Shown: piece after piece, positions 7,917-17,525 of the stretch
Layout of the letters: every line of letters starts with the position of its first letter
Numbering within the stretch: position 1 is the stretch's first letter
IMG/VR virus record: IMGVR_UViG_3300010362_000031
Location: 1-46,749 of that record
Length of the DNA: 46,749 bases
Reading direction: 5' to 3' (one strand)
DNA from: a virus
Lineage: Duplodnaviria; Caudoviricetes
The notes under the pieces: model-generated
The model's input: only the letters and a program-made list of their open reading frames with translations
Databases searched by the model: none
What the model was told of the DNA's origin: nothing
Program-made: the position numbers and the translations under genes

Positions 7917-8657
7917 TCAGGCCTCCTGCTGCTGTTGGACCCAACGCATGCAGTTGCTGCAGGCGCAGGGCAGGGAATGACCAAGCCTCTTGGGATCGAT
8001 GGCTGGGCGCGGCGGCGCTGGGTCATGGCCGTTGAACAGCGGGCCAGCGCCGGCCGGCTGATCGAGCCAGCGCTGCTGGTGCAGCCATGTCGCGGGATTG
8101 CACCAGTTGTGGTCGTCGGGCTTGGTGCGCTTGTAGCGGCCGATGCCGTCGAGCAGCTCGGCCTGGGTCGCGCCGGCCTTGCGGGCGACGAGGTATTTGC
8201 GCTCAGCGTCGGCCTTCCCGACCTTGTGCGGGTAGGCCAGCCAGAATTCGGCAAAGTCTGTCTTGACCGACACACGACCCCCCTGGGGGGGATTAAGGGG
8301 GGGTTCTGACGGTTCTAATGACGGTTCTATTGGCTGTGATCCCGTGGTTACATCCGGATGTAACGCGGGGGTGACATCCGAATGAGTAGCTGCGTTACAT
8401 CGCAGAAAGTAATGGTTTGCCTGCTTGCCGTGCTTGCCGACGCGCTGTTCTGCGCGCAGTAGGTCGGCCTCGGCCAAAACCTTTAGCTGGTAGTTCACCG
8501 TCTTGCGGGTGACGCCGCAATCGGCCGCGATCCGCGCCTGCGAGGGCCAGCACTCGCCCTCCTCGTTCGCACAATCGGCCAGCTTGATCAGCACCAGTTT
8601 GGCGAGGGGCGTGGGGCACAGGGCGCTCAACGCCCAGGCGACGGCGCGGATGCTCAT
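7917..8657 (-). CDS. Phage replication initiator (N-terminal HTH)
   Basis: MSIRAVAWAL...KLVLIKLADCANEEGECWPSQARIA...; linker EPSLEPSE; C-terminal FAEFWLAYPHKVGK...NPATWLHQQRW. Confidence 0.85.
   Translation of the reverse strand: MSIRAVAWALSALCPTPLAKLVLIKLADCANEEGECWPSQARIAADCGVTRKTVNYQLKVLAEADLLRAEQRVGKHGKQANHYFLRCNAATHSDVTPALHPDVTTGSQPIEPSLEPSEPPLNPPQGGRVSVKTDFAEFWLAYPHKVGKADAERKYLVARKAGATQAELLDGIGRYKRTKPDDHNWCNPATWLHQQRWLDQPAGAGPLFNGHDPAPPRPAIDPKRLGHSLPCACSNCMRWVQQQQEA
8278..8402. other. Probable replication origin (iterons) within the initiator gene
   Basis: Perfect palindrome GTTACATCCGGATGTAAC (8347-8364), further GT(G/T)ACATC copies at 8371 and 8394, GGTTCT repeats; lambda O-like layout. 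Confidence 0.55.
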
Positions 8658-9013
8658 AGCCGGTCGCCCTTGCGGCTGTTGCATGGCTTGCAGGCCGCAA
8701 CGAGATTGCGCTCGACCGTTAGCCCGCCCCAGGCCTTGGGCAGGACATGGTCGACACAGGTTGCTGGATCTCCACAGTAGACACAGCGGTTCTGATCGCG
8801 CTCCAGAACCTCCCTTCGTAATTCCCTCCAGCCGCTCGGGCTGTAGGCGTAGTCGCCCATACCGTTGCCGATGGCGACGATGAAGCAGCCCTCTTCCAGC
8901 CGTGCAACGATCCAGCGAACCGGATGGAAGCGTCCATCGTCCTCTGGCAGCTCCCAGCTCTTCAGCTCGGCGAGCAGTCGCCCATGGCTGCCGGGGCGGA
9001 AGTAGCCAGTCAT
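8654..9013 (-). CDS. HNH endonuclease
   Basis: WRELRREVLERDQNRCVYCG...DHVLPKAWGG...NLVAACKPCNSRKG. Confidence 0.9.
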   Translation of the reverse strand: MTGYFRPGSHGRLLAELKSWELPEDDGRFHPVRWIVARLEEGCFIVAIGNGMGDYAYSPSGWRELRREVLERDQNRCVYCGDPATCVDHVLPKAWGGLTVERNLVAACKPCNSRKGDRL

Positions 9014-9208: not shown

Positions 9209-9646
9209 TCACGCGACCCTCCTGGCCTCGGGTTCCATCCAGCCCTCGGGCAGCCGGCCCCAGCTCTTGAGCAGCTCGCGGGCCTGGGGCCAGGACATGA
9301 CGACCTCGTACGCCACGCCCAGGTCGGCGCAGCGGTCACGGAAGCGCTTCTGCTCGTCGCTCAGCTCGCCGGCCCGCTGCTTGCCGATCAGCGTCTTCTC
9401 GGCCGGGCGCTTCAGCTCCATGCAGCCGCAGCCGGTGCCCCACAGGATCAGCAGGTCAGGCGCGCCGGGCAGCAGCGAGCCGCCGAGCTTGAGCTGATGG
9501 ACGATCCGGCGCGCGAGATCGCGTTCAACCGGGGAGCGGGTCGGGAGAAAGATGCCGTTCGGGCTGGGAACAACGATGGCAGACAACGGCGCAAACCTCA
9601 GCCGCGTCGTGATCTCCCGCTGGAGGAGACGCTCGGCCTGCCGCAT
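9209..9646 (-). CDS. VRR-NUC / PD-(D/E)XK nuclease
   Basis: E..LQ, PNG, GAPDLLI, MELKRP, GELSDEQKRF motifs. Confidence 0.8.
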   Translation of the reverse strand: MRQAERLLQREITTRLRFAPLSAIVVPSPNGIFLPTRSPVERDLARRIVHQLKLGGSLLPGAPDLLILWGTGCGCMELKRPAEKTLIGKQRAGELSDEQKRFRDRCADLGVAYEVVMSWPQARELLKSWGRLPEGWMEPEARRVA

Positions 9647-9760
9647 CGACGTGCCCCTCCCTCCGGTTGCAAAGTGTTTATGTCAAATGCTTTTGCGCTG
9701 TGTCTGGAACCATTGCGGTAAGGATGCCGTTACCAACATGCCCCTTGCGCGAGAGGCCAG

Positions 9761-9994
9761 TTATGCGGTAACGCGCTCGTGAGTTTGGGCCTCCTCGGGG
9801 GCCGGCCACAGATCTGGGCGGATCTCGTGCAACGGGATATCGAGAGCCTCGCTGATGACCCGCGCGTGATGCGGCGGGATCAGCGCGGCCCTCGTGCGCT
9901 TAAATCCGCACACCGTGGACCAGTGAACACCGAGCAGCTCGGCAAGCCTGCCGATGCCGCCGGCCCGTTCGGCGATTTGATCGATTGACAACAT
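9761..9994 (-). CDS. cro: Cro/YdaS-like regulator
   Basis: GGIGRLAELLGVHWSTV...IPLHEIRPDLW; divergent from the repressor. Confidence 0.8.
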   Translation of the reverse strand: MLSIDQIAERAGGIGRLAELLGVHWSTVCGFKRTRAALIPPHHARVISEALDIPLHEIRPDLWPAPEEAQTHERVTA

Positions 9995-10078
9995 GTCGCA
10001 CATCGTTGGCTTACCCCTCATCAACGTCAAGCGGCAAAACGGCGGGTGCAGCACATTCAACTGGGAGAGGCTCGGACC

Positions 10079-10603
10079 ATGATGACGAGTAACTCAGACG
10101 ATGACTTTACGAGGCCGGAGCAGCTCTCCGACGACGACATGCCGTTCGACCTCGCGATGGAGGACAACCCCGATCTCCGGCTGAAGCTGGGTCGCTACCT
10201 GGGCGGTGTGCGGAAGCTGAAGAAGATCAGCCAGGACGAGGCCGCCAGGAGCCTGGGGCTGAGCCGGCCGCATCTCAGCAACATCGAGCAAGGCCGCAGC
10301 AGGACTGGCTGGAAGAGCATCCGCGCGATGGCGCGATACTATGGCTATGGCATCCGCGCGCTGATCGAGGAGGCCTCGGCCGCGACGTTGCCCGAGCTGA
10401 CGCCCGACGCCATCCACGGCGACGACGCCCTGCGGCACAGCGCTCGCGGCGGCGCGGCGCACGACCAGCCGGCCGGGCTGTCCGATGACGAGGCGTTTAT
10501 CGTGGGCCTCTTCCGCACGCTCAGCGTCGAGGATCGGAAATTTATTGCCAAGCAAATTTTGCAACTTGTTCAGGCGCGTACGAACCGGATCGGCGGTTCG
10601 TAA
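10079..10603 (+). CDS. CI-like XRE repressor
   Basis: LGGVRKLKKISQDEAARSLGLSRPHLSNIEQGRS; C-terminal LSDDEAFIVGLFRTLS..DR; no S24 peptidase domain. Confidence 0.8.
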   Translation: MMTSNSDDDFTRPEQLSDDDMPFDLAMEDNPDLRLKLGRYLGGVRKLKKISQDEAARSLGLSRPHLSNIEQGRSRTGWKSIRAMARYYGYGIRALIEEASAATLPELTPDAIHGDDALRHSARGGAAHDQPAGLSDDEAFIVGLFRTLSVEDRKFIAKQILQLVQARTNRIGGS

Positions 10604-10609
10604 GAAAAT

Positions 10610-10655
10610 TGTTGCCAACGGCCCTTGACGACCCCCCTGTGGGCTGCGCCATCAT
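10610..10655 (+). promoter_or_regulatory. Operator TGTTGCCAACG plus putative early promoter
   Basis: Operator copy at 10610-10620, TTGACG -35-like box at 10625; heads the recombination/RAMP operon. Confidence 0.5.
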
Positions 10656-10684
10656 GACGCAGGCCCCATACCAGGGAGGGCGTC

Positions 10685-10822
10685 ATGCACCGGGTCGGCC
10701 TGAGCAACCTCTTTCAAAACATAGGTAAAACGGCCCGCCGTAAGGCCGGGATCTTTGAGGCCTGGGCGGCCAGCATCCTGCTGCTCTGGGTTGTCATCGC
10801 TATCGCGTGCTGGTCGCTATGA
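10685..10822 (+). CDS. Small membrane protein (45 aa)
   Basis: GGAGGG RBS; C-terminal hydrophobic stretch AWAASILLLWVVIAIACW; ATGA overlap with ERF. Confidence 0.5.
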   Translation: MHRVGLSNLFQNIGKTARRKAGIFEAWAASILLLWVVIAIACWSL

Positions 10823-11571
10823 GCGGCGAGCTGATCGAGCAACAGCCCGGCAACGGTCTGCCCACGCGCCGCGACGCCGACACAACGCTGCTCGACATCA
10901 TCGCCAAGGCGGCGTCCGACCCAAACGTGGACGTTGAGAAGCTGGAACGGCTCACGGCGCTCTACGAACGTCACATGGAGCGCGAGGCACATGCCGCCTA
11001 TACAGCGGCCCTGGCCGAGATGCAGCCCGAGCTGCCGGAGATTGAAGAACGCGGCGAGATCCTCGACAAGGCCGGCGAGGTGCAGAGCACCTATGCCCTT
11101 TGGGAGGACGTCCAGGCCAAGATCAAGCCGATCCTGGCGCGGCACGGATTTGCCCTCACCTTCGCCATCGGCAAGGAGGAGGGCCAGCTCAGCGTCACCG
11201 GCAAGCTCAGCCACCGCCAGGGCCATGTCGAGCAGACGACCATCCATCTGCCGCTCGATACCAGCGGGTCGAAGAACACGGTCCAGAGCTATGGCAGCAG
11301 CACCAGCTACGGCATGCGCTACACGGCGCGCGCTCTGCTCAACCTGACCAGCCGGGGCGAGGACGACGACGGCGTTGCCGGCGGGACCAAGTACATCAAC
11401 CCCGGTCAGGTCGAGGCGCTGACGCTGCTCGCCGAGCGCGCCCAGGTCGAGATGGTCCGCTACTGCGCGCATCTCGGCGTGCCCAGCCTCGACCAGCTCC
11501 CGGCGCGTCAGTACCGGGCCGCCGAGAAATCGCTGCAGGAGGCGATCACCAAGCGGGAGGCGAGGCGATGA
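10819..11571 (+). CDS. erf: ERF-family single-strand annealing protein
   Basis: DVEKLERL...ALAEMQPELP...YALWEDV...IKPILARHGFAL...LSHRQGH...QSYGSSTSYGMRY...EDDDG. Confidence 0.9.
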   Translation: MSGELIEQQPGNGLPTRRDADTTLLDIIAKAASDPNVDVEKLERLTALYERHMEREAHAAYTAALAEMQPELPEIEERGEILDKAGEVQSTYALWEDVQAKIKPILARHGFALTFAIGKEEGQLSVTGKLSHRQGHVEQTTIHLPLDTSGSKNTVQSYGSSTSYGMRYTARALLNLTSRGEDDDGVAGGTKYINPGQVEALTLLAERAQVEMVRYCAHLGVPSLDQLPARQYRAAEKSLQEAITKREARR

Positions 11572-12080
11572 GCCAGCCAATTCGCAAGCAGCACCGACAG
11601 CTCGTTCCCTTTGGCGAGCTGGAGATCGCGATCAAGGAGCTGCGCCGGCATTTCGACTGCAACAACGCCGACGCGCTGCGGCTGATCGGCTATTCCGGCG
11701 GGACGGGCTGGGCCGACTGGCGGCGCTATGGCGCGCCGGCCGTGGCGCTCAATGCCGCCAAGGCCATTCTCAATGACCTGCGCGGCTCGACCATGCTGCG
11801 ACCGCCAGGAACGCCGGCACCAGAGCTGCCGCTGACCGCGCCGCCAGCGCCGGCCACGAATGGCGTGGATCACCCGCCCGGCCTGCTGACGGTTGCCGAG
11901 CCGGAGCCGGAGGCGCGGGCGCTGCTGCTGGAGCACGATGAGCCGCCGGAGCCGCTCTTCACGTTCGATGAGTTGGAGGCGCTATTCGCGCTGCTGCACA
12001 CGCGCGGCGGCCAGTTGCCGACCGAGGAGACGCGCCGCTGCCTGCTGCGCAAGGTCGCCCAGCTCATGGCGGCGACATGA
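11568..12080 (+). CDS. Hypothetical protein (possible N-terminal HTH)
   Basis: MSQPIRKQ...; ATGA coupling on both sides. Confidence 0.6.
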   Translation: MSQPIRKQHRQLVPFGELEIAIKELRRHFDCNNADALRLIGYSGGTGWADWRRYGAPAVALNAAKAILNDLRGSTMLRPPGTPAPELPLTAPPAPATNGVDHPPGLLTVAEPEPEARALLLEHDEPPEPLFTFDELEALFALLHTRGGQLPTEETRRCLLRKVAQLMAAT

Positions 12081-12724
12081 TCGAGATCCTCGATTGCGCC
12101 CAGGGCAGCCCCGAATGGTTTGAGACCCGGCGCGGCCTGCCGACCGCCAGCGAGTTCAAGTCGATCATGGCTGACAGCCGCCAGCGCAAGATGCGGACGG
12201 GCTATCTGCACCGGCTGGCGGCCGAGCTGATTACAGGCACGGTCACGCCGACCTACCAGAGCGCGGACATGCGGCGCGGCAAGGCGCTGGAGGCCGAGGC
12301 GCGCATGGTCTACGCCATCGCGCACGGGGTCGAACTGCGGCTCGTCGGGTTCATCCGCGACGCCGATCTCTGCTGCGGCTGCAGTCCCGACGCGCTGATC
12401 GGCGAGCTGGGCATGGCCGAGATCAAGACGCGCAACCCGGCGCTGATGGTCGAGGTGATGACGACCGGCGGCTGCCCGGCCGAGTACCGGGCGCAGATCC
12501 AGGGCAACCTCTGGGTCGCCAACCGGCAATGGTGCGACCTCGTCTGCTATCACCCAGACATGCCGCTCTATGTCCACCGGGTCGAGCGGGACGAGGAGTT
12601 CATCGCCGAGCTGGCGGCCGAGGTCGGCAAGTTCGCCGCCGAGCTGCGCGAGATCGTGCTGCGCATCCAGGGCGGCCCCAGCGCAATCCTGCGCGATCAG
12701 CTCGAAAGGAGTTTGGCTCAATGA
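12077..12724 (+). CDS. YqaJ / lambda-exonuclease family recombinase
   Basis: QGSPEWFETRRGLPTASEF...MRRGKALEAEAR...CSPDALI...EIKT...QIQGNLWV. Confidence 0.92.
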   Translation: MIEILDCAQGSPEWFETRRGLPTASEFKSIMADSRQRKMRTGYLHRLAAELITGTVTPTYQSADMRRGKALEAEARMVYAIAHGVELRLVGFIRDADLCCGCSPDALIGELGMAEIKTRNPALMVEVMTTGGCPAEYRAQIQGNLWVANRQWCDLVCYHPDMPLYVHRVERDEEFIAELAAEVGKFAAELREIVLRIQGGPSAILRDQLERSLAQ

Positions 12725-13419
12725 CGCAGAGCAATGGCATCGAACGCCTCATCTCGGGCGATGCGACGCCCGGCATGCTGACGGCGGCCCTGACGGCGGC
12801 CGAGGGCCTGACGCAGGTCGTTATCCGACCGCCCAACACGCAGTACGCGACGGTCCACATTATCGGGACCAGCCCCTACGTACAGCATGCCTTCAGCCAA
12901 AAGGCGCAGGCGCAGATGGAGGAGACCCAGCGCGCCGGCACCCAGGCAAGGAGCCGCAAGAAGCGCGAGGCGCGCGATTTCGAGGCCGACTACCGTGCCG
13001 CGATGCACCTCAGCGAGGAGGGCTGGAACGGCATCCCAGCGCCGGCCTTCCGTAACGCGGCCATCGCTACCTGCAGGCTGGTGGGGTTCGTGATGGCCCG
13101 CGCCAAGCTGAGCATCTTTGTCGAGGCCGATGGCTACGATGCGGTTGATGGCACACCGCTGGTACGCATCCAGGGCGAGCCAGAAATCCATAAGGGCTGG
13201 GGTCGCAATGACAACGGCAGCGCTGACCTGCGTTGGCGGCCAATGTGGAGGGAATGGGAGGCCCTTGTGCGCGTCCGCTGGGACGGCGACCAGTTCTCGG
13301 CCGGCGACGTGTTCAACCTTTTCGCCCGCGCCGGCCTCCAGGTCGGGATCGGCGAGGGCCGAGCGTCCAGCCCGAATAGCAACGGCCTCGGTTGGGGTTT
13401 TTGGAGGATCGGCGAATGA
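12721..13419 (+). CDS. Solo RAMP/Cas7-like RNA-binding protein
   Basis: AAGGAG RBS, ATGA overlap; RAMP-like motifs VHIIGTSPYVQH, IPAPAFRNAAI, RPMWREW, and C-terminal G-loop AGLQVGIGEGRASSPNSNGLGWGFWRI. Confidence 0.75.
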   Translation: MTQSNGIERLISGDATPGMLTAALTAAEGLTQVVIRPPNTQYATVHIIGTSPYVQHAFSQKAQAQMEETQRAGTQARSRKKREARDFEADYRAAMHLSEEGWNGIPAPAFRNAAIATCRLVGFVMARAKLSIFVEADGYDAVDGTPLVRIQGEPEIHKGWGRNDNGSADLRWRPMWREWEALVRVRWDGDQFSAGDVFNLFARAGLQVGIGEGRASSPNSNGLGWGFWRIGE

Positions 13420-13850
13420 CCAAGGTCGGCGAGGAGCTGGTCGCGCTGCGCGACGGCGACGGCATCATCTACCCGGCAACCGTCGTTGACTGGGCGCGCG
13501 ATCATCCTGAGAGCGCGCTGCACCGACAATTCGAGTGGGATCTCGAAAGGGCGGCGCGCGAGCACTGGCTCTACCGAGCGAGGCAGCTTATCAGCGTTCA
13601 CGTTCGCTCCGATGACGGGCACCGAACGACGATTGCGCTGCAGATCGACGCCAGCCATGGCGGCGGCTACCGCCAGCTCGATGACGTGCTGAGCAGCGCC
13701 GAGTTGCGCCGGGCAGCGGTCGAGCAGGCGGTCGGCGAGCTGGTCCGATGGAAGGACCGCAACAGCCATCTGCGGCAGGAGCTGCACGGCATCTTCCGCT
13801 CCATCGACCGCGTCGAGCGCGTCGTGCTGGCGCGCGACGAGGCTGCGTAA
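13416..13850 (+). CDS. Partner protein of the RAMP/array locus, function unknown
   Basis: GGAGG RBS, ATGA overlap; GIIYPATVVDWARDHPESALHRQFEWD..AAREHWLYRARQLI motif. Confidence 0.75.
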   Translation: MTKVGEELVALRDGDGIIYPATVVDWARDHPESALHRQFEWDLERAAREHWLYRARQLISVHVRSDDGHRTTIALQIDASHGGGYRQLDDVLSSAELRRAAVEQAVGELVRWKDRNSHLRQELHGIFRSIDRVERVVLARDEAA

Positions 13851-13861
13851 AAAGGGGTTTG

Positions 13862-14343
13862 GGCAAGGCGGGGCTTCGCGGGGCGCGGCAAGGCCCGGCA
13901 GGGCAGGCTTGGGCATGGCAGGCTCGGCACGGTCGGTCAGGGATGGGCATGGCGGGTCTGGTCTCGGCAGGCAAGGACTGGCATGGCATGGCTGGGCACG
14001 GAGTGCCATGACGGGGCACGGCAGGCGGGGCTTGGGTTGGCGCGGTCAGGCACCGCCCGGCCCGGCGCGGCAAGGCAGGCGAGGCTCGGGTTGGCGTGGA
14101 TCGGCCGGTCTCGGCATCGCAGGGCGCGGCAGGCCCGGCTCGGCGAGCTAGGGCACCGCCGGTCCCGGCGCGGCAAGGCAGGCTTGGCCGGTCAGGGCTG
14201 GGCACCGCTAGGCGGGGCGCGGAGCGGAGCGGCCGGCTCGGCAGCTCAGGGCTTGGTTTGGTTTGGCGCGGCAGGGCATGGCAATGGCAGGCCAGGATTG
14301 GCTCGGGCCGGCAAGGCACGGCTGAGCAGGGCGGGGCAAGGCA
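13862..14343 (+). ncRNA. GGY-NN pentamer array of 9 units (candidate guide-RNA array)
   Basis: 89 pentamers in 5-nt phase. Units 13862-13920, 13921-13969, 13970-14023, 14024-14077, 14078-14131, 14132-14180, 14181-14234, 14235-14289, 14290-14343. Each is closed by GGCA (once GGCC, once TGGCA). The array fills the space between a stop codon and the next RBS. Confidence 0.8.
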
Positions 14344-14358
14344 GGCGTGGAGGTCGGG

Positions 14359-14853
14359 ATGGCTGAGGTGTTTTGGGCACGATGGAACGGAGCGACGTTT
14401 GTGCCGCTGCGGCCAGAGCTGTGCGAGCGCCAATTCTATCCCGACCAGCGCGTGCTGCTGGAGGCGCACCACGAGCGCAGCTACCAGCGCCACAAGGCCT
14501 ATTTCGCCAGCTTGGCCGACGCATGGCAGTCGCTCGCCAGCGACCGGTGGCCGACGCCGGAGCACCTCCGCAAGTTCGCGCTCATCAGGACCGGCTGGCG
14601 TGACGAACGGATCTTCCCCTGCGACAGCCCCGAGCAGGCCGAGCGCATGGCGGTCTGGCTGAAGCCGTTCGACCAGTTCGCGGTGATCGCGACCGAGGGC
14701 ACGCTGGTGCGCGCCTGGACGGCCCGCAGCCAGTCCTACAAGGCCATGGGCCGCGATGAGTTCAACCGCAGCATGGACGACGTCCTCGATTACGTCGCCG
14801 GGCTGCTCGGCATCCCGAAAGACGTCCTCGCAGCACAGGGAGAGCTGGCATGA
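14359..14853 (+). CDS. DUF1367/NinB-like recombination-associated protein
   Basis: GGAGG RBS; RSYQRHKAYFASLADAW...EHLRKFALIRTG...SQSYKAMGRDEF. Confidence 0.65.
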   Translation: MAEVFWARWNGATFVPLRPELCERQFYPDQRVLLEAHHERSYQRHKAYFASLADAWQSLASDRWPTPEHLRKFALIRTGWRDERIFPCDSPEQAERMAVWLKPFDQFAVIATEGTLVRAWTARSQSYKAMGRDEFNRSMDDVLDYVAGLLGIPKDVLAAQGELA

Positions 14854-15368
14854 AGATCTGCATGAACCCGACGACCCGCATCAGCCGCTCGCCGATGGGG
14901 ATCGGCCGGGTCTGGGAGGGCCAGACCGAGCAGGGCACGCCGGTCAAGGTGCTGGTCTCGGGCCTTGCCGCCGGCAGCGACGATCCCGCCCTGGCGGCGC
15001 AGTTCGACCGCGAGCACGAGGAGCTGCCAGTCGAGGACGGGCCGAAATGCCCCGATTGCGGTGAGCCGCTGGAGTATCACGTCGCCGAGGTCGGGGGTGA
15101 GGCCGAGATGCGGCGGGCCGAGGTCGATCTCTACGAGGTCGTCGCCCGCTGGCTCATGGCGAGCGACAACGAGCTGGCCCCGCCGGGCGTGACCGAGGCC
15201 GGCGTCGCCGAGCACTTCCGCAACAAGCTGGAGGCGCTCGATCCCGGCGCGCACAAGCGGCTGATGAAGGCCGCCGGGGTCGTGACGCGCTACGTCGCCG
15301 AGCAGATCCTCGGCGCGGCCGAGCCGGTGCCGTCGATCCACACGCACCACAGGCCCGGTCATGCCTGA
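14850..15368 (+). CDS. Hypothetical protein with a CPDC motif
   Basis: ATGA coupling; RVWEGQTEQGTPV...CPDCG. Confidence 0.6.
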   Translation: MKICMNPTTRISRSPMGIGRVWEGQTEQGTPVKVLVSGLAAGSDDPALAAQFDREHEELPVEDGPKCPDCGEPLEYHVAEVGGEAEMRRAEVDLYEVVARWLMASDNELAPPGVTEAGVAEHFRNKLEALDPGAHKRLMKAAGVVTRYVAEQILGAAEPVPSIHTHHRPGHA

Positions 15369-15570
15369 GCTGCTGCAGAGCTGGCGGGTCGGCCCGCCCA
15401 GGCCGGCGAAGGCGCGCCGGCATCCCTACTTCCCGCTGCCGGGTCACCGCTCGATGGGCGAGGTCATGCGCGAAGAGGAGCGGATCGTCGCGGAACGCGG
15501 GGTGACAGTGCTGTCGCCTGTCCGCAAGCGTAAGGAGACCAACGATGGGCAGAGGCCCTCTGAATTTTAG
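15361..15570 (+). CDS. Hypothetical protein
   Basis: Fits the operon chain between 15368 and 15545. Confidence 0.45.
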   Translation: MPELLQSWRVGPPRPAKARRHPYFPLPGHRSMGEVMREEERIVAERGVTVLSPVRKRKETNDGQRPSEF

Positions 15571-15790
15571 ACAGCGCGACCTCAAGGCAGCCGCCAAAGC
15601 CCTAGAGGATGCTGGGCTTAAGGTCTCAAAAGTAGAGCTTGATAAAGCGGGCGGCGTTGCGATATATGTTGGTGGCAGCAACATTGCTGCGGCCAAGGTT
15701 GCCAGCACTAGGCAGCCGAGCGAGTGGGAAAGACGAGCAGATGAAGACCTCGAAAAAGCCAGAACGCGACAGCGTCAAAAGCTGGGTTAG
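15545..15790 (+). CDS. Excisionase-like protein
   Basis: AAGGAG RBS; FRQRDLKAAAKALEDAGLKVSKVEL pattern typical of small genes preceding alphaproteobacterial phage integrases. Confidence 0.6.
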   Translation: MGRGPLNFRQRDLKAAAKALEDAGLKVSKVELDKAGGVAIYVGGSNIAAAKVASTRQPSEWERRADEDLEKARTRQRQKLG

Positions 15791-16883
15791 TAACGGCACT
15801 CGGTATAATCGCCTCCGCTACCGGGGCCAGAAAGAAGTCAAGCTGCCCAACGGTGACCGCTATTCGCGGGAGGTGCAGGAAGCGGCGCGGGAGGCCCGCA
15901 GGGCCATCGATCTGGTGCTGGACGCCCAGCCGGCACAGGACAAAAAAAAGAGGGGCGACACGCTGGGTGCCGCCCTCTCCCGGTATTTCGATACACCCGC
16001 CTTCCAAGTCATGCGGGCGAGCACGCGCGAGAAGCGCCGCTACATCCTCAACGCCCTCGGCAAGCGGTATGGCGATTGCGTGCTGTCCGAGCTGACCGAC
16101 GAGACCATCGAGAAATGGCTCGCGGCGCGCGAGGCGACGCCGGCAGCGGCCCGCAACCTCCTCGTTGCCCTCCAGCACTTTTTTTCCGAGCGCGTCGGGG
16201 CGGGCCTCTTGAAGAAGCGGAACAACCCGGTCCTCGGCGTTCGGCTGGTCAAGCGGGTCGCGCGCAAGGTCGGCAAGGGCCACTACAAGACTTGGAAGCA
16301 GGCGCACGTTGACCAGTTCCGCGCGTACTGGCCGATGGGCACGATGGAGCGGTTGGCGTTTGAGCTGATGCTGCTGACGGGCATGAGCGCGGCCGACGTT
16401 ATCCGGTTCAGCCGGTCCTGGGTCGGCGCGGACAGCCTCATCCGCTACAAGCGGCGCAAGACCAGCACCGAGGCAATCCTGTTCTTCAGCAAGGAGCTGC
16501 GGGCGGCTATCGCGGCCTGTCCGCTGGCGACGCCGGCCGACCGGCCGTTTGAGCCTATCCTGCGCGGCCCTACCGGCCGGGTCTGGTACAAAGACGGGCA
16601 GGTCTGCGCAGATCCTGATGACGAGACCGACGAGGGCTGGCGCAATCAGCACTTTAGCCAATGGTTCACCAAAGCGGCCCGTGCCGCCGGGCTGCCCGAG
16701 GGGATCTCGGCGCATGGCGTGCGCAAGCGGGCGGCCTGCGACGATTGTCTCAAGCACTGGCCCCAGGCGAAGCTGATGAGCAAGTTTGGCTGGTCAGACC
16801 CGAAAGAGGTCGTGCTCTACACGCTGGAGGCCGAAAAGGAGCTGTTCATGCTCGCCGAGGCCGCCAAAGAGGCTGCCGATTAG
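15741..16883 (+). CDS. int: Tyrosine recombinase/integrase
   Basis: TW...VDQFRAYWP.GT.ERLAFELMLLTG; KT; SAHGVRK; FGW; LYT. The first catalytic Arg position appears to be Ser. Confidence 0.85.
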   Translation: MKTSKKPERDSVKSWVSNGTRYNRLRYRGQKEVKLPNGDRYSREVQEAAREARRAIDLVLDAQPAQDKKKRGDTLGAALSRYFDTPAFQVMRASTREKRRYILNALGKRYGDCVLSELTDETIEKWLAAREATPAAARNLLVALQHFFSERVGAGLLKKRNNPVLGVRLVKRVARKVGKGHYKTWKQAHVDQFRAYWPMGTMERLAFELMLLTGMSAADVIRFSRSWVGADSLIRYKRRKTSTEAILFFSKELRAAIAACPLATPADRPFEPILRGPTGRVWYKDGQVCADPDDETDEGWRNQHFSQWFTKAARAAGLPEGISAHGVRKRAACDDCLKHWPQAKLMSKFGWSDPKEVVLYTLEAEKELFMLAEAAKEAAD

Positions 16884-17040
16884 GCCCCTGTCTAAGAATT
16901 GTCAAAACGAGGCTCAAATGTGTCTAACTGGCAGAAACCCTCGACAAACGGGCCTAAAATTAGTCATGCCCGTATTAGAGACGCCCTGCAAAATCAAAGC
17001 TTGAGACAACCCGTTTAGACTATTGGCACGAAAAAGCCAA
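16884..17040. other. Candidate attP region
   Basis: AT-richer non-coding stretch after int with repeated TGTCTAA-like motifs in both orientations (16889, 16900, 16921; inverted near 17001 and 17014). Confidence 0.45.
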
Positions 17041-17041
17041 C

Positions 17042-17076
17042 GAGGCCCCGCCGGACGGACGGGGCCTCTCTTTTTT
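17042..17076 (+). terminator. Rho-independent terminator
   Basis: GAGGCCCCG...CGGGGCCTC stem followed by TCTTTTTT. Confidence 0.75.
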
Positions 17077-17298
17077 GGCGGCTCGCTCACGGCTATATGT
17101 GGGGATGCGCAACAAGGAGATGGGCGATGAGCGACGACGAGGCATTTAGAAACTGGGACAAAGCCATCGAGGCGGAAGAGCGCAGGATGCGCGCGCTCAG
17201 CGACGAAGAGCTGGAGCGGGAGCCACCGAGCTGGGCCAAATCTCTTGAGCTGAAGGCCAGACAGCATCTCGCTCGTCAGGCGGCAGCCCTGCGCAGGG

Positions 17299-17499
17299 CT
17301 ACTTCTCGACCAAACAATGGTCCAGCACCTTCATCAGCATCTGCATCCGCACGCCCAGCTCGTGATCGAGGAACCACATGACCAGCGAGATGAAGGCGAT
17401 GTTCATCAGCACCAGCATCAGGAAGACCGGCGGCAGCGCGCCGATCAGCGAGCGGCCGAGATCGAACAGGCTGGTATGCGCGGGTTGATCGTCTGCCAT
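17299..17499 (-). CDS. Small membrane protein (holin-like candidate)
   Basis: One long hydrophobic segment LPPVFLMLVLMNIAFISLVMWFL; lies at the distal end of the late strand. Confidence 0.5.
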   Translation of the reverse strand: MADDQPAHTSLFDLGRSLIGALPPVFLMLVLMNIAFISLVMWFLDHELGVRMQMLMKVLDHCLVEK

Positions 17500-17525
17500 C
17501 GTTTGCCTATGTTGGTGCTGACATC

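Follow-up and report, generated by a model that had tools for sequence, protein, structure and literature searches.

We analyzed the complete 46,749-nt virus record IMGVR_UViG_3300010362_000031, a soil phage genome (the whole of which is called the window below), and focused on a locus where two coupled genes are followed by an array of GGY/NN pentamers, in which a GGY triplet alternates with two variable bases (NN). This locus is almost certainly a VIPR, a member of a published family with a less-studied form of array. Its features are as follows, the array units being numbered U1 to U9.

12721 to 13419, + strand: vipr, encoding a 232-aa single-RRM RAMP protein, Vipr (phrog_4652, profile match to PDB 36pp, predicted fold)
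13416 to 13850, + strand: vap-like accessory gene (144 aa, phrog_15946), adjoining vipr in 122 of the 174 sequences compared below
13857 to 14343, + strand: guide array of GGY/NN pentamers, staggered and tail-less, its nine units meeting at GGCA (period-5 statistics, strict 5-nt register)
13857 to 13920, + strand: U1 (possibly two units), no target found
13921 to 13969, + strand: U2, tested against fetched loci only, no target
13970 to 14023, + strand: U3, no target found
14024 to 14077, + strand: U4, predicted guide to the DGGVWANNP motif of CapV-type phospholipase genes of the cyclic oligonucleotide-based antiphage signaling system (CBASS), from matches that skip one base after each NN (skip 1)
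14078 to 14131, + strand: U5, matches at chance level only
14132 to 14180, + strand: U6, tested against fetched loci only, no target
14181 to 14234, + strand: U7, weak lead to rival vipr genes, not above null
14235 to 14289, + strand: U8 (junction with an extra base), no target found
14290 to 14343, + strand: U9, no target found

We then analyzed the protein sequences. The 232-aa open reading frame carries the motifs VHIIGTSPYVQH, IPAPAFRNAAI, and GIGEGR..GLGWGFW, just as the first-pass annotation stated, and the RAMP/Cas7-like fold proposed there was borne out by the structural model (pLDDT 85.7), whose best match was a Cmr-beta chain (Z 10.1, root-mean-square deviation 3.3, 147 residues). 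The top 30 rows of fold matches were all CRISPR entries, and Foldseek concurred; SUSP1 Vipr was not among the fold matches, from libraries that end in April 2026. The protein belongs to phrog_4652 (E value of 4.7e-13 in PHROGs), as does SUSP1 Vipr, and we found 1,029 relatives among 1,565 candidates. A profile built from 120 relatives had a single significant PDB chain, that of SUSP1 Vipr (36pp, E value of 1e-5), and hhalign aligned the two proteins over 173 columns with 92% probability. SUSP1 residues H17, R138, D177, and R179, whose roles are given in 10.64898/2026.04.26.720927, correspond in the profile alignment to H56, R173, E212, and R214 of the window protein, with SUSP1 W178 aligned to a Gly. 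In the model, the protein adopts a RAMP fold (an RRM with thumb and G-loop), and it is homologous to the described Vipr. Its ATG overlaps the stop codon of a YqaJ gene; an alternative in-frame ATG at 12529 would give a protein of 296 aa but is situated within YqaJ. The 144-aa partner gene (13416 to 13850) is indeed coupled to vipr through an ATGA overlap, as first annotated. Its product showed no match to SUSP1 Vap1 (phrog_5926) by BLAST, hhalign, or profile comparison and no family in Pfam, NCBIfam, PADLOC, PDB, or ESM Atlas.

The array extends from 13862 to 14343, or from 13857 if a degenerate first pentamer is counted. It contains 41 GGYnnGGY pairs versus 5.5 ± 2.3 (maximum, 15) in 2,000 dinucleotide shuffles, which places the pentamer array reported earlier far above chance, and no other tract of this kind occurs in the window (the best 500-nt segment scored 37, and the best unrelated segment scored 8). 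Autocorrelation reached 0.565 at lag 5 and 0.564 at lag 54. The triplet is GGY in 71 of the 102 pentamers, the others being GGA, GTC, CGC, GGG, and more. Units of 49 to 64 nt are separated by 4-nt GGCA junctions, one of which reads GGCC and one of which has an additional base; the segmentation was made in a strict 5-nt register, which favors GGCA junctions, and U8 and U9 were split by hand. In contrast to the SUSP1 locus, there is no intervening sequence between units and no 3' tail, and in RNA folding eight of the nine units did no better than shuffles, the exception being U3 (z of -2.2). U4 and U6 have a common 3' part, with 27 of their last 29 nt identical (14049 to 14077 and 14152 to 14180), a sign that guides may evolve via copying between units. 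The letters of the array are matched by contigs of one DNA run, which may be the window's own source, save for a gap between pieces at 14140 to 14167.

We then looked into the relatives of the locus. The expectation that homologues would have adjacent 5-nt-periodic arrays proved right: arrays flank vipr homologues in 22 of the first 25 loci, and an array was located within 1.5 kb of a vipr homologue in 140 of 174 sequences. To arrive at these 174 sequences, we had set aside SUSP1, the window's own record, and 17 contained loci; the counts of 140/174 and of 122/174 (for the accessory gene near vipr) take in the window and near-duplicate records. The position of the array varies among relatives, which have it before, between, or after the genes.

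According to the SUSP1 papers, NN pairs with double-stranded DNA (dsDNA), every third base being skipped, and transcription is blocked on either strand without cutting. We compared 507 distinct guides of 9 to 13 NN with 1.85 Mb of array-masked loci. Under skip 1, 10 guides reached at least 90% and 4 at least 95%, versus 3, 3, and 0 guides at 90% or above for skips of 0, 2, and 3 bases in the identical set; four shuffles gave 1 to 2 guides at 90% or above and none at 95% or above. This excess over other skips and over shuffles indicates that, at the sequence level, the published 1-nt-skip code holds in the clade of the window. The strong matches fall on protein motifs, the skipped base being the wobble position, and they include vipr genes (PYVQHAFSA, 18/18; TDAEDGSQLV, 19/20), an accessory gene (antisense, 19/20), and a phage Walker-A motif (20/20). 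As to self-targeting, every window guide scored below 80% within the window itself when skip 1 was applied. For guides with a GGCA junction, we also looked at the target base that follows the last NN, and it was A for 10 of 13 (background of 0.20; the 13 include some chance-level matches), which suggests that the junction A may pair with the target or act as a site rule.

Several further observations concern these relatives. Some guides in related phages have a match in the vipr or accessory gene of another phage (L082:977, 18/18; L050:11186, 19/20; L129:11162, 20/22; L132:11303, 19/20), and by eye the L082 guide matches the window's own vipr at 16/18. The convergent guides L129:11432 and L149:11290 decode antisense to one motif (4 guides versus a null mean of 0.7), which we take to be DPPW methyltransferase-like. 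Guide L157:7460 matches L168 at 20/20, and L157:7460 and L160:11277 decode to Walker-A motifs. One guide core is common to the arrays of seven loci (L012, L019, L099, L100, L110, L112, and L172) with Vipr identity down to 51%, pointing to a conserved target. By eye, the peptides decoded from U2 and from L113:3492, a guide of the closest relative, overlap by four codons, which would suit two neighboring target sites in a single gene. INPHARED matches (H1 to H31) are Vipr homologues annotated as hypothetical in cultured Mycobacterium and Gordonia phages and in one cyanophage.

Among the window guides, U4 matches the DGGVWANNP catalytic motif of CapV-type phospholipase genes at 18/20, antisense and in frame with the wobble base skipped, and its first 16 bases match CapV genes perfectly. 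The first 8 NN of U4, searched for without mismatch in IMG/VR, returned 26 matches, 11 of which (9 distinct) were patatin genes at DGGVWANNP; PADLOC classified all 9 distinct viral patatins as "Effector phospholipase," and 6 of the 9 records contain a SMODS cyclase. We found no patatin gene in the window or in the VIPR loci. With up to two mismatches, the full U4 pattern was found in 9/130 genomes from the family of a Vineibacter metagenome-assembled genome and in 7/101 genomes from the genus of a Bradyrhizobium lablabi genome, versus 0 for the reversed pattern in each set. Patatins accounted for 7/9 and 6/7 of these matches, respectively, the 3 others being unrelated genes, and one locus with an identical cyclase is present in both sets. 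All six loci fetched from the 130-genome set were operons of a cyclase and a phospholipase (four with E2), and among the four of them scanned with NCBIfam, three were above the CBASS-lipase cutoff and one was DS2. A cyclase likewise neighbors 6/6 patatin matches of the second set. Our survey of the family identified 15 PADLOC-positive phospholipase genes in 14 genomes, with a cyclase neighbor for 14 of the 15; U4 scored 18/20 on seven of these genes, 17 on five, 16 on two, and 15 on one.

The match is not limited to U4. We compared 510 guides with 423 kb of CapV loci and flanks: skip 1 yielded 63 matches, contributed by 6 guides, no other skip yielded any, and ten shuffles had 0 to 2 matching guides. 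Two of the six guides gave single chance-level matches, and the other four are CapV guides: besides U4, L122:11264 matches DGG.WANNP (up to 18/18), and L129:11491 and L149:11744, from related phages, match the catalytic-serine motif GTSTGG (21/22) and had no role in the choice of the CapV loci. All four run antisense to the CapV gene. On an 84-kb CapV set, where the four real guides had 12 to 28 sites each, we tried 15,000 random guides, and not one got to 90%. Both guide sites correspond to CapV catalytic motifs, since GTSTGG fits the G-x-S-x-G and DGGVWANNP the D-G-[A/G] described in PMC9095652. Based on these matches, U4 was very probably selected against CapV-family genes. We propose that this phage VIPR, with a guide matching the catalytic codons of a CBASS phospholipase, is likely an RNA-guided silencer of anti-phage immunity, and we consider it fairly probable that U4 works in anti-CBASS silencing. 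What would be new is the predicted target class of U4, for which the statistics are strong, the family itself being already published. The 1-nt-skip code and a concrete predicted target are what our analysis would add to the first-pass annotation.

Several points weigh against this proposal. U4 is never a full match to CapV: NN9 and NN10 are each mismatched, NN9 at the codon of the catalytic Asp, and these form the 3' end, where SUSP1 pairing starts. That end is nearly identical to the one of U6 and may thus have been overwritten. The CapV loci were gathered with U4, so that the scores of U4 and L122 on them are not independent, and the L129 and L149 phages are related (Vipr identity of 77%). 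Eight of the nine units have no target, 3 of the 9 viral patatin records (2 of them near-complete) contain no SMODS cyclase, and only 14/130 genomes of the family have such a phospholipase gene. The host is uncertain, its alphaproteobacterial assignment being loose and drawn from weak similarities. Finally, a block of transcription would leave pre-existing CapV in place.

The alternative that survives best, although we judge it unlikely, is an ordinary inter-phage VIPR, with U4 directed against the patatin or CBASS genes that rival prophages carry as cargo, or against a phage patatin that stands alone, and not against chromosomal host immunity. It agrees with the published targets (rival phages, satellites, and other VIPRs), with the clade guides that match vipr, vap, and a phage Walker-A gene, and with the presence of the U4 site in nine distinct viral records, including those devoid of SMODS cyclase. 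However, the cyclase that neighbors nearly all PADLOC-positive phospholipases in genomes (14/15) argues for CBASS, as does the cyclase of 6/9 viral records, so that most prophage-borne targets would still be CBASS; moreover, the code is indifferent to host versus prophage copies.

A somewhat less probable explanation is that U4 descended from an anti-CapV guide and no longer silences, the system acting through other guides. The two 3'-end mismatches, the 3' end common with U6, and the odd junctions at U7 and U8 would fit such decay, but the last NN is mismatched in other clade guides as well (L050, L151, and L160), a score of 18/20 passes the 80% rule of 10.64898/2026.04.26.720920, and the first 16 bases are perfect. 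It is very unlikely that the complex acts on mRNA, through antisense binding and a block of translation, instead of on DNA. The antisense orientation of all four CapV guides and the duplex that SUSP1 Vipr makes with single-stranded RNA, according to 10.64898/2026.04.26.720927, are in line with this idea, whereas the sense-orientation matches of clade guides (PYVQHAFSA, TDAEDGSQLV, and YGQPGVGKTT) would need DNA as the target, and the RNA-bound complexes in the same text were mostly incomplete. The weakest alternative, a low-complexity or coding repeat without guide role and with a CapV match due to chance, could draw on open frames across the array on both strands and on copied pieces common to units, but it is largely refuted by period 5 with 4-nt junctions, by the absence of an open frame in any of six frames in 49 of 95 long relative arrays, by the variable position of arrays relative to the genes, and by matches that are specific to skip 1 and exceed the nulls, and it has a negligible chance of being right.

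Our preferred reading, a VIPR that silences CBASS through U4, can be set out as a mechanism. The array would be co-transcribed with the early recombination operon, since we saw no separate promoter consensus (no promoter or terminator consensus was seen on the + strand from 9600 to 17500). The GGCA junction would shift the register by one base and mark off one guide. One Vipr per GGY/NN pentamer makes up the SUSP1 filament, as shown by cryo-EM in 10.64898/2026.04.26.720927, in agreement with the one-protomer-per-GGY model of the first-pass annotation. A U4-loaded Vipr filament would sit on capV and block its transcription. Escape from U4 would require a change of catalytic-motif codons, so that one guide could cover many CBASS variants. 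Divergent helix-turn-helix (HTH) and IrrE-like peptidase genes flank all three U4-matched CBASS operons tested (L364, L365, and L366), an arrangement like the CapH/CapP DNA-damage switch, which raises CBASS expression after DNA damage according to 10.1101/2022.04.27.489752. The benefit of silencing would be greatest upon CBASS induction, as might follow DNA damage of the kind that also induces a prophage, and the likeness to CapH/CapP offers a possible reason why a transcription block could help an induced prophage.

We then compared the locus with known systems. The GGY/NN system of VIPR type that the first-pass annotation pointed to is indeed published (10.64898/2026.04.26.720920), and the window Vipr is in the same family as that of SUSP1. 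The papers on VIPR of SUSP1 and P. fulva type II (10.64898/2026.04.26.720920, 10.64898/2026.04.26.720927, and 10.64898/2026.10.15.759431; PDB 36pp) describe a phrog_4652 Vipr RAMP in a two-gene phage locus, GGY/NN repeats of about 9 to 12 pentamers with a 1-nt skip on the wobble base, and guides on conserved protein motifs and against rival vipr genes, all of which resemble our observations; the window array likewise consists of adjacent tandem GGY/NN tracts in the range of about 9 to 16 repeats used to define VIPR. The window differs in having no 3' tail or spacer between units, whereas the SUSP1 type has a conserved structured 3' tail; in the sequence family of its accessory gene (phrog_15946 versus phrog_5926 for SUSP1 vap1); in the Gly at the position of SUSP1 W178; and in that about 30% of its triplets are not GGY. 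The legend of fig. S18 in 10.64898/2026.04.26.720920 mentions staggered vrRNA arrays in which neighboring units share 1 nt, each unit ending on the base that opens the following one, and the GGCA|G junctions of the window fit this description; the accessible text gives no targets or small-RNA data for such arrays.

A window guide predicted at a bacterial defense effector has no counterpart in the accessible text of the three VIPR papers, in which the reported targets are satellites, prophages, other VIPRs, and REP decoys. We found no report of VIPR against CBASS in the literature, although figures, data S3/S4, and supplements may list such targets and 18 of the 66 P. fulva targets are undescribed in the text; the words "CBASS" and "patatin" have 0 occurrences in 10.64898/2026.10.15.759431. 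Searches for RNA-guided anti-CBASS in phages and for Vipr as an anti-defense protein returned no relevant literature. According to PMC13728456, the proteins Acb1, Acb2, and Acb5 also represent phage counter-defense against CBASS, but they destroy or sequester the signal molecule, whereas the window system would silence the effector gene via a reprogrammable RNA guide. The Cas7-group RAMPs of Class 1 CRISPR (Csm3, Cmr4/6) share the RRM core, thumb, and G-loop (Z of 8 to 10). The window differs from these systems in its predicted pairing, which is gapped and not contiguous, and in the absence of CRISPR repeats and other cas genes from what we saw. In keeping with the first-pass annotation, no cas genes were found among 10 Pfam-scanned and 30 PHROGs-scanned proteins, a subset of the open reading frames, and no CRISPR-like tandem array was seen in the window, where no search aimed at CRISPR arrays was made. 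The hallmarks of Class 1 CRISPR-Cas (a CRISPR array with cas1/cas5/cas6 and a large subunit) were not seen among the proteins scanned, the neighbors being recombination genes, and an Rfam scan found nothing.

Target searches with the other units gave no comparable result. Against 1.85 Mb of VIPR-neighbor DNA, the best window guide reached 16/20, equal to other skip rules. IMG/VR contained no match to 18 bases of U3 or to 16 bases of U7, and the search with U9 gave 15 matches without a recurrent family. In the 130 genomes, U3 (3 matches versus 1 for the control), U8 (10 versus 7), and U1 (14 versus 11) were at chance level; U2 and U6 had no target in the fetched loci. A 14-base core of U7 gave 105 matches in IMG/VR, 21 of them in vipr genes (GTAPYVQLRF, 16/20). 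We keep this assignment to rival vipr genes (APYVQLR) as a lead only, not above the null, because the core was chosen after the likeness had been noticed and because 6 of 30 shuffles reached 16/20 on vipr/vap genes. Targets for U5 were rejected as chance (14 IMG/VR matches, two at 19/20 in unrelated genes, one of them a phage dNMP kinase gene, and 1 match versus 0 for the control in the 130 genomes).

The window encodes portal, capsid, tail-fiber, replication-initiator, repressor-like, and integrase genes (Pfam and PHROGs scans) and is therefore, as judged from its gene content, a temperate tailed phage. The VIPR locus is located in a block that we take to be lambdoid:

10082 to 16883, + strand: early/recombination block with HTH repressor-like, ERF, YqaJ, vipr, vap, array, NinB-like, small open reading frame, and integrase (Pfam, PHROGs)

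The gene order around vipr in one relative (L001) matches that of the window. An HNH endonuclease gene (8657 to 9013, - strand) is located 3.7 kb upstream of the locus, with no connection to it seen.

The sequence evidence supports the validity of the 1-nt-skip code for tail-less staggered arrays, which, with one guide stored per ~54 nt, would lend themselves to compact multiplex silencing. Guides on CBASS catalytic motifs in four phages would extend VIPR to counter-defense, as an anti-CBASS programmed by RNA, whereas those described to date are protein sponges and nucleases. Since guides spell conserved protein motifs, those that have no assigned target could reveal defense genes not yet known, and the cultured Mycobacterium and Gordonia phages and the cyanophage with Vipr homologues are possible test systems. 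More broadly, and with somewhat less assurance than for U4 itself, we favor the idea that the widespread clade of tail-less staggered VIPRs is an anti-defense weapon that can be programmed through its RNA guides; one guide would settle on the catalytic-motif codons of a bacterial immune effector, CBASS CapV for instance, and silence a whole enzyme family across hosts, with no synonymous escape.

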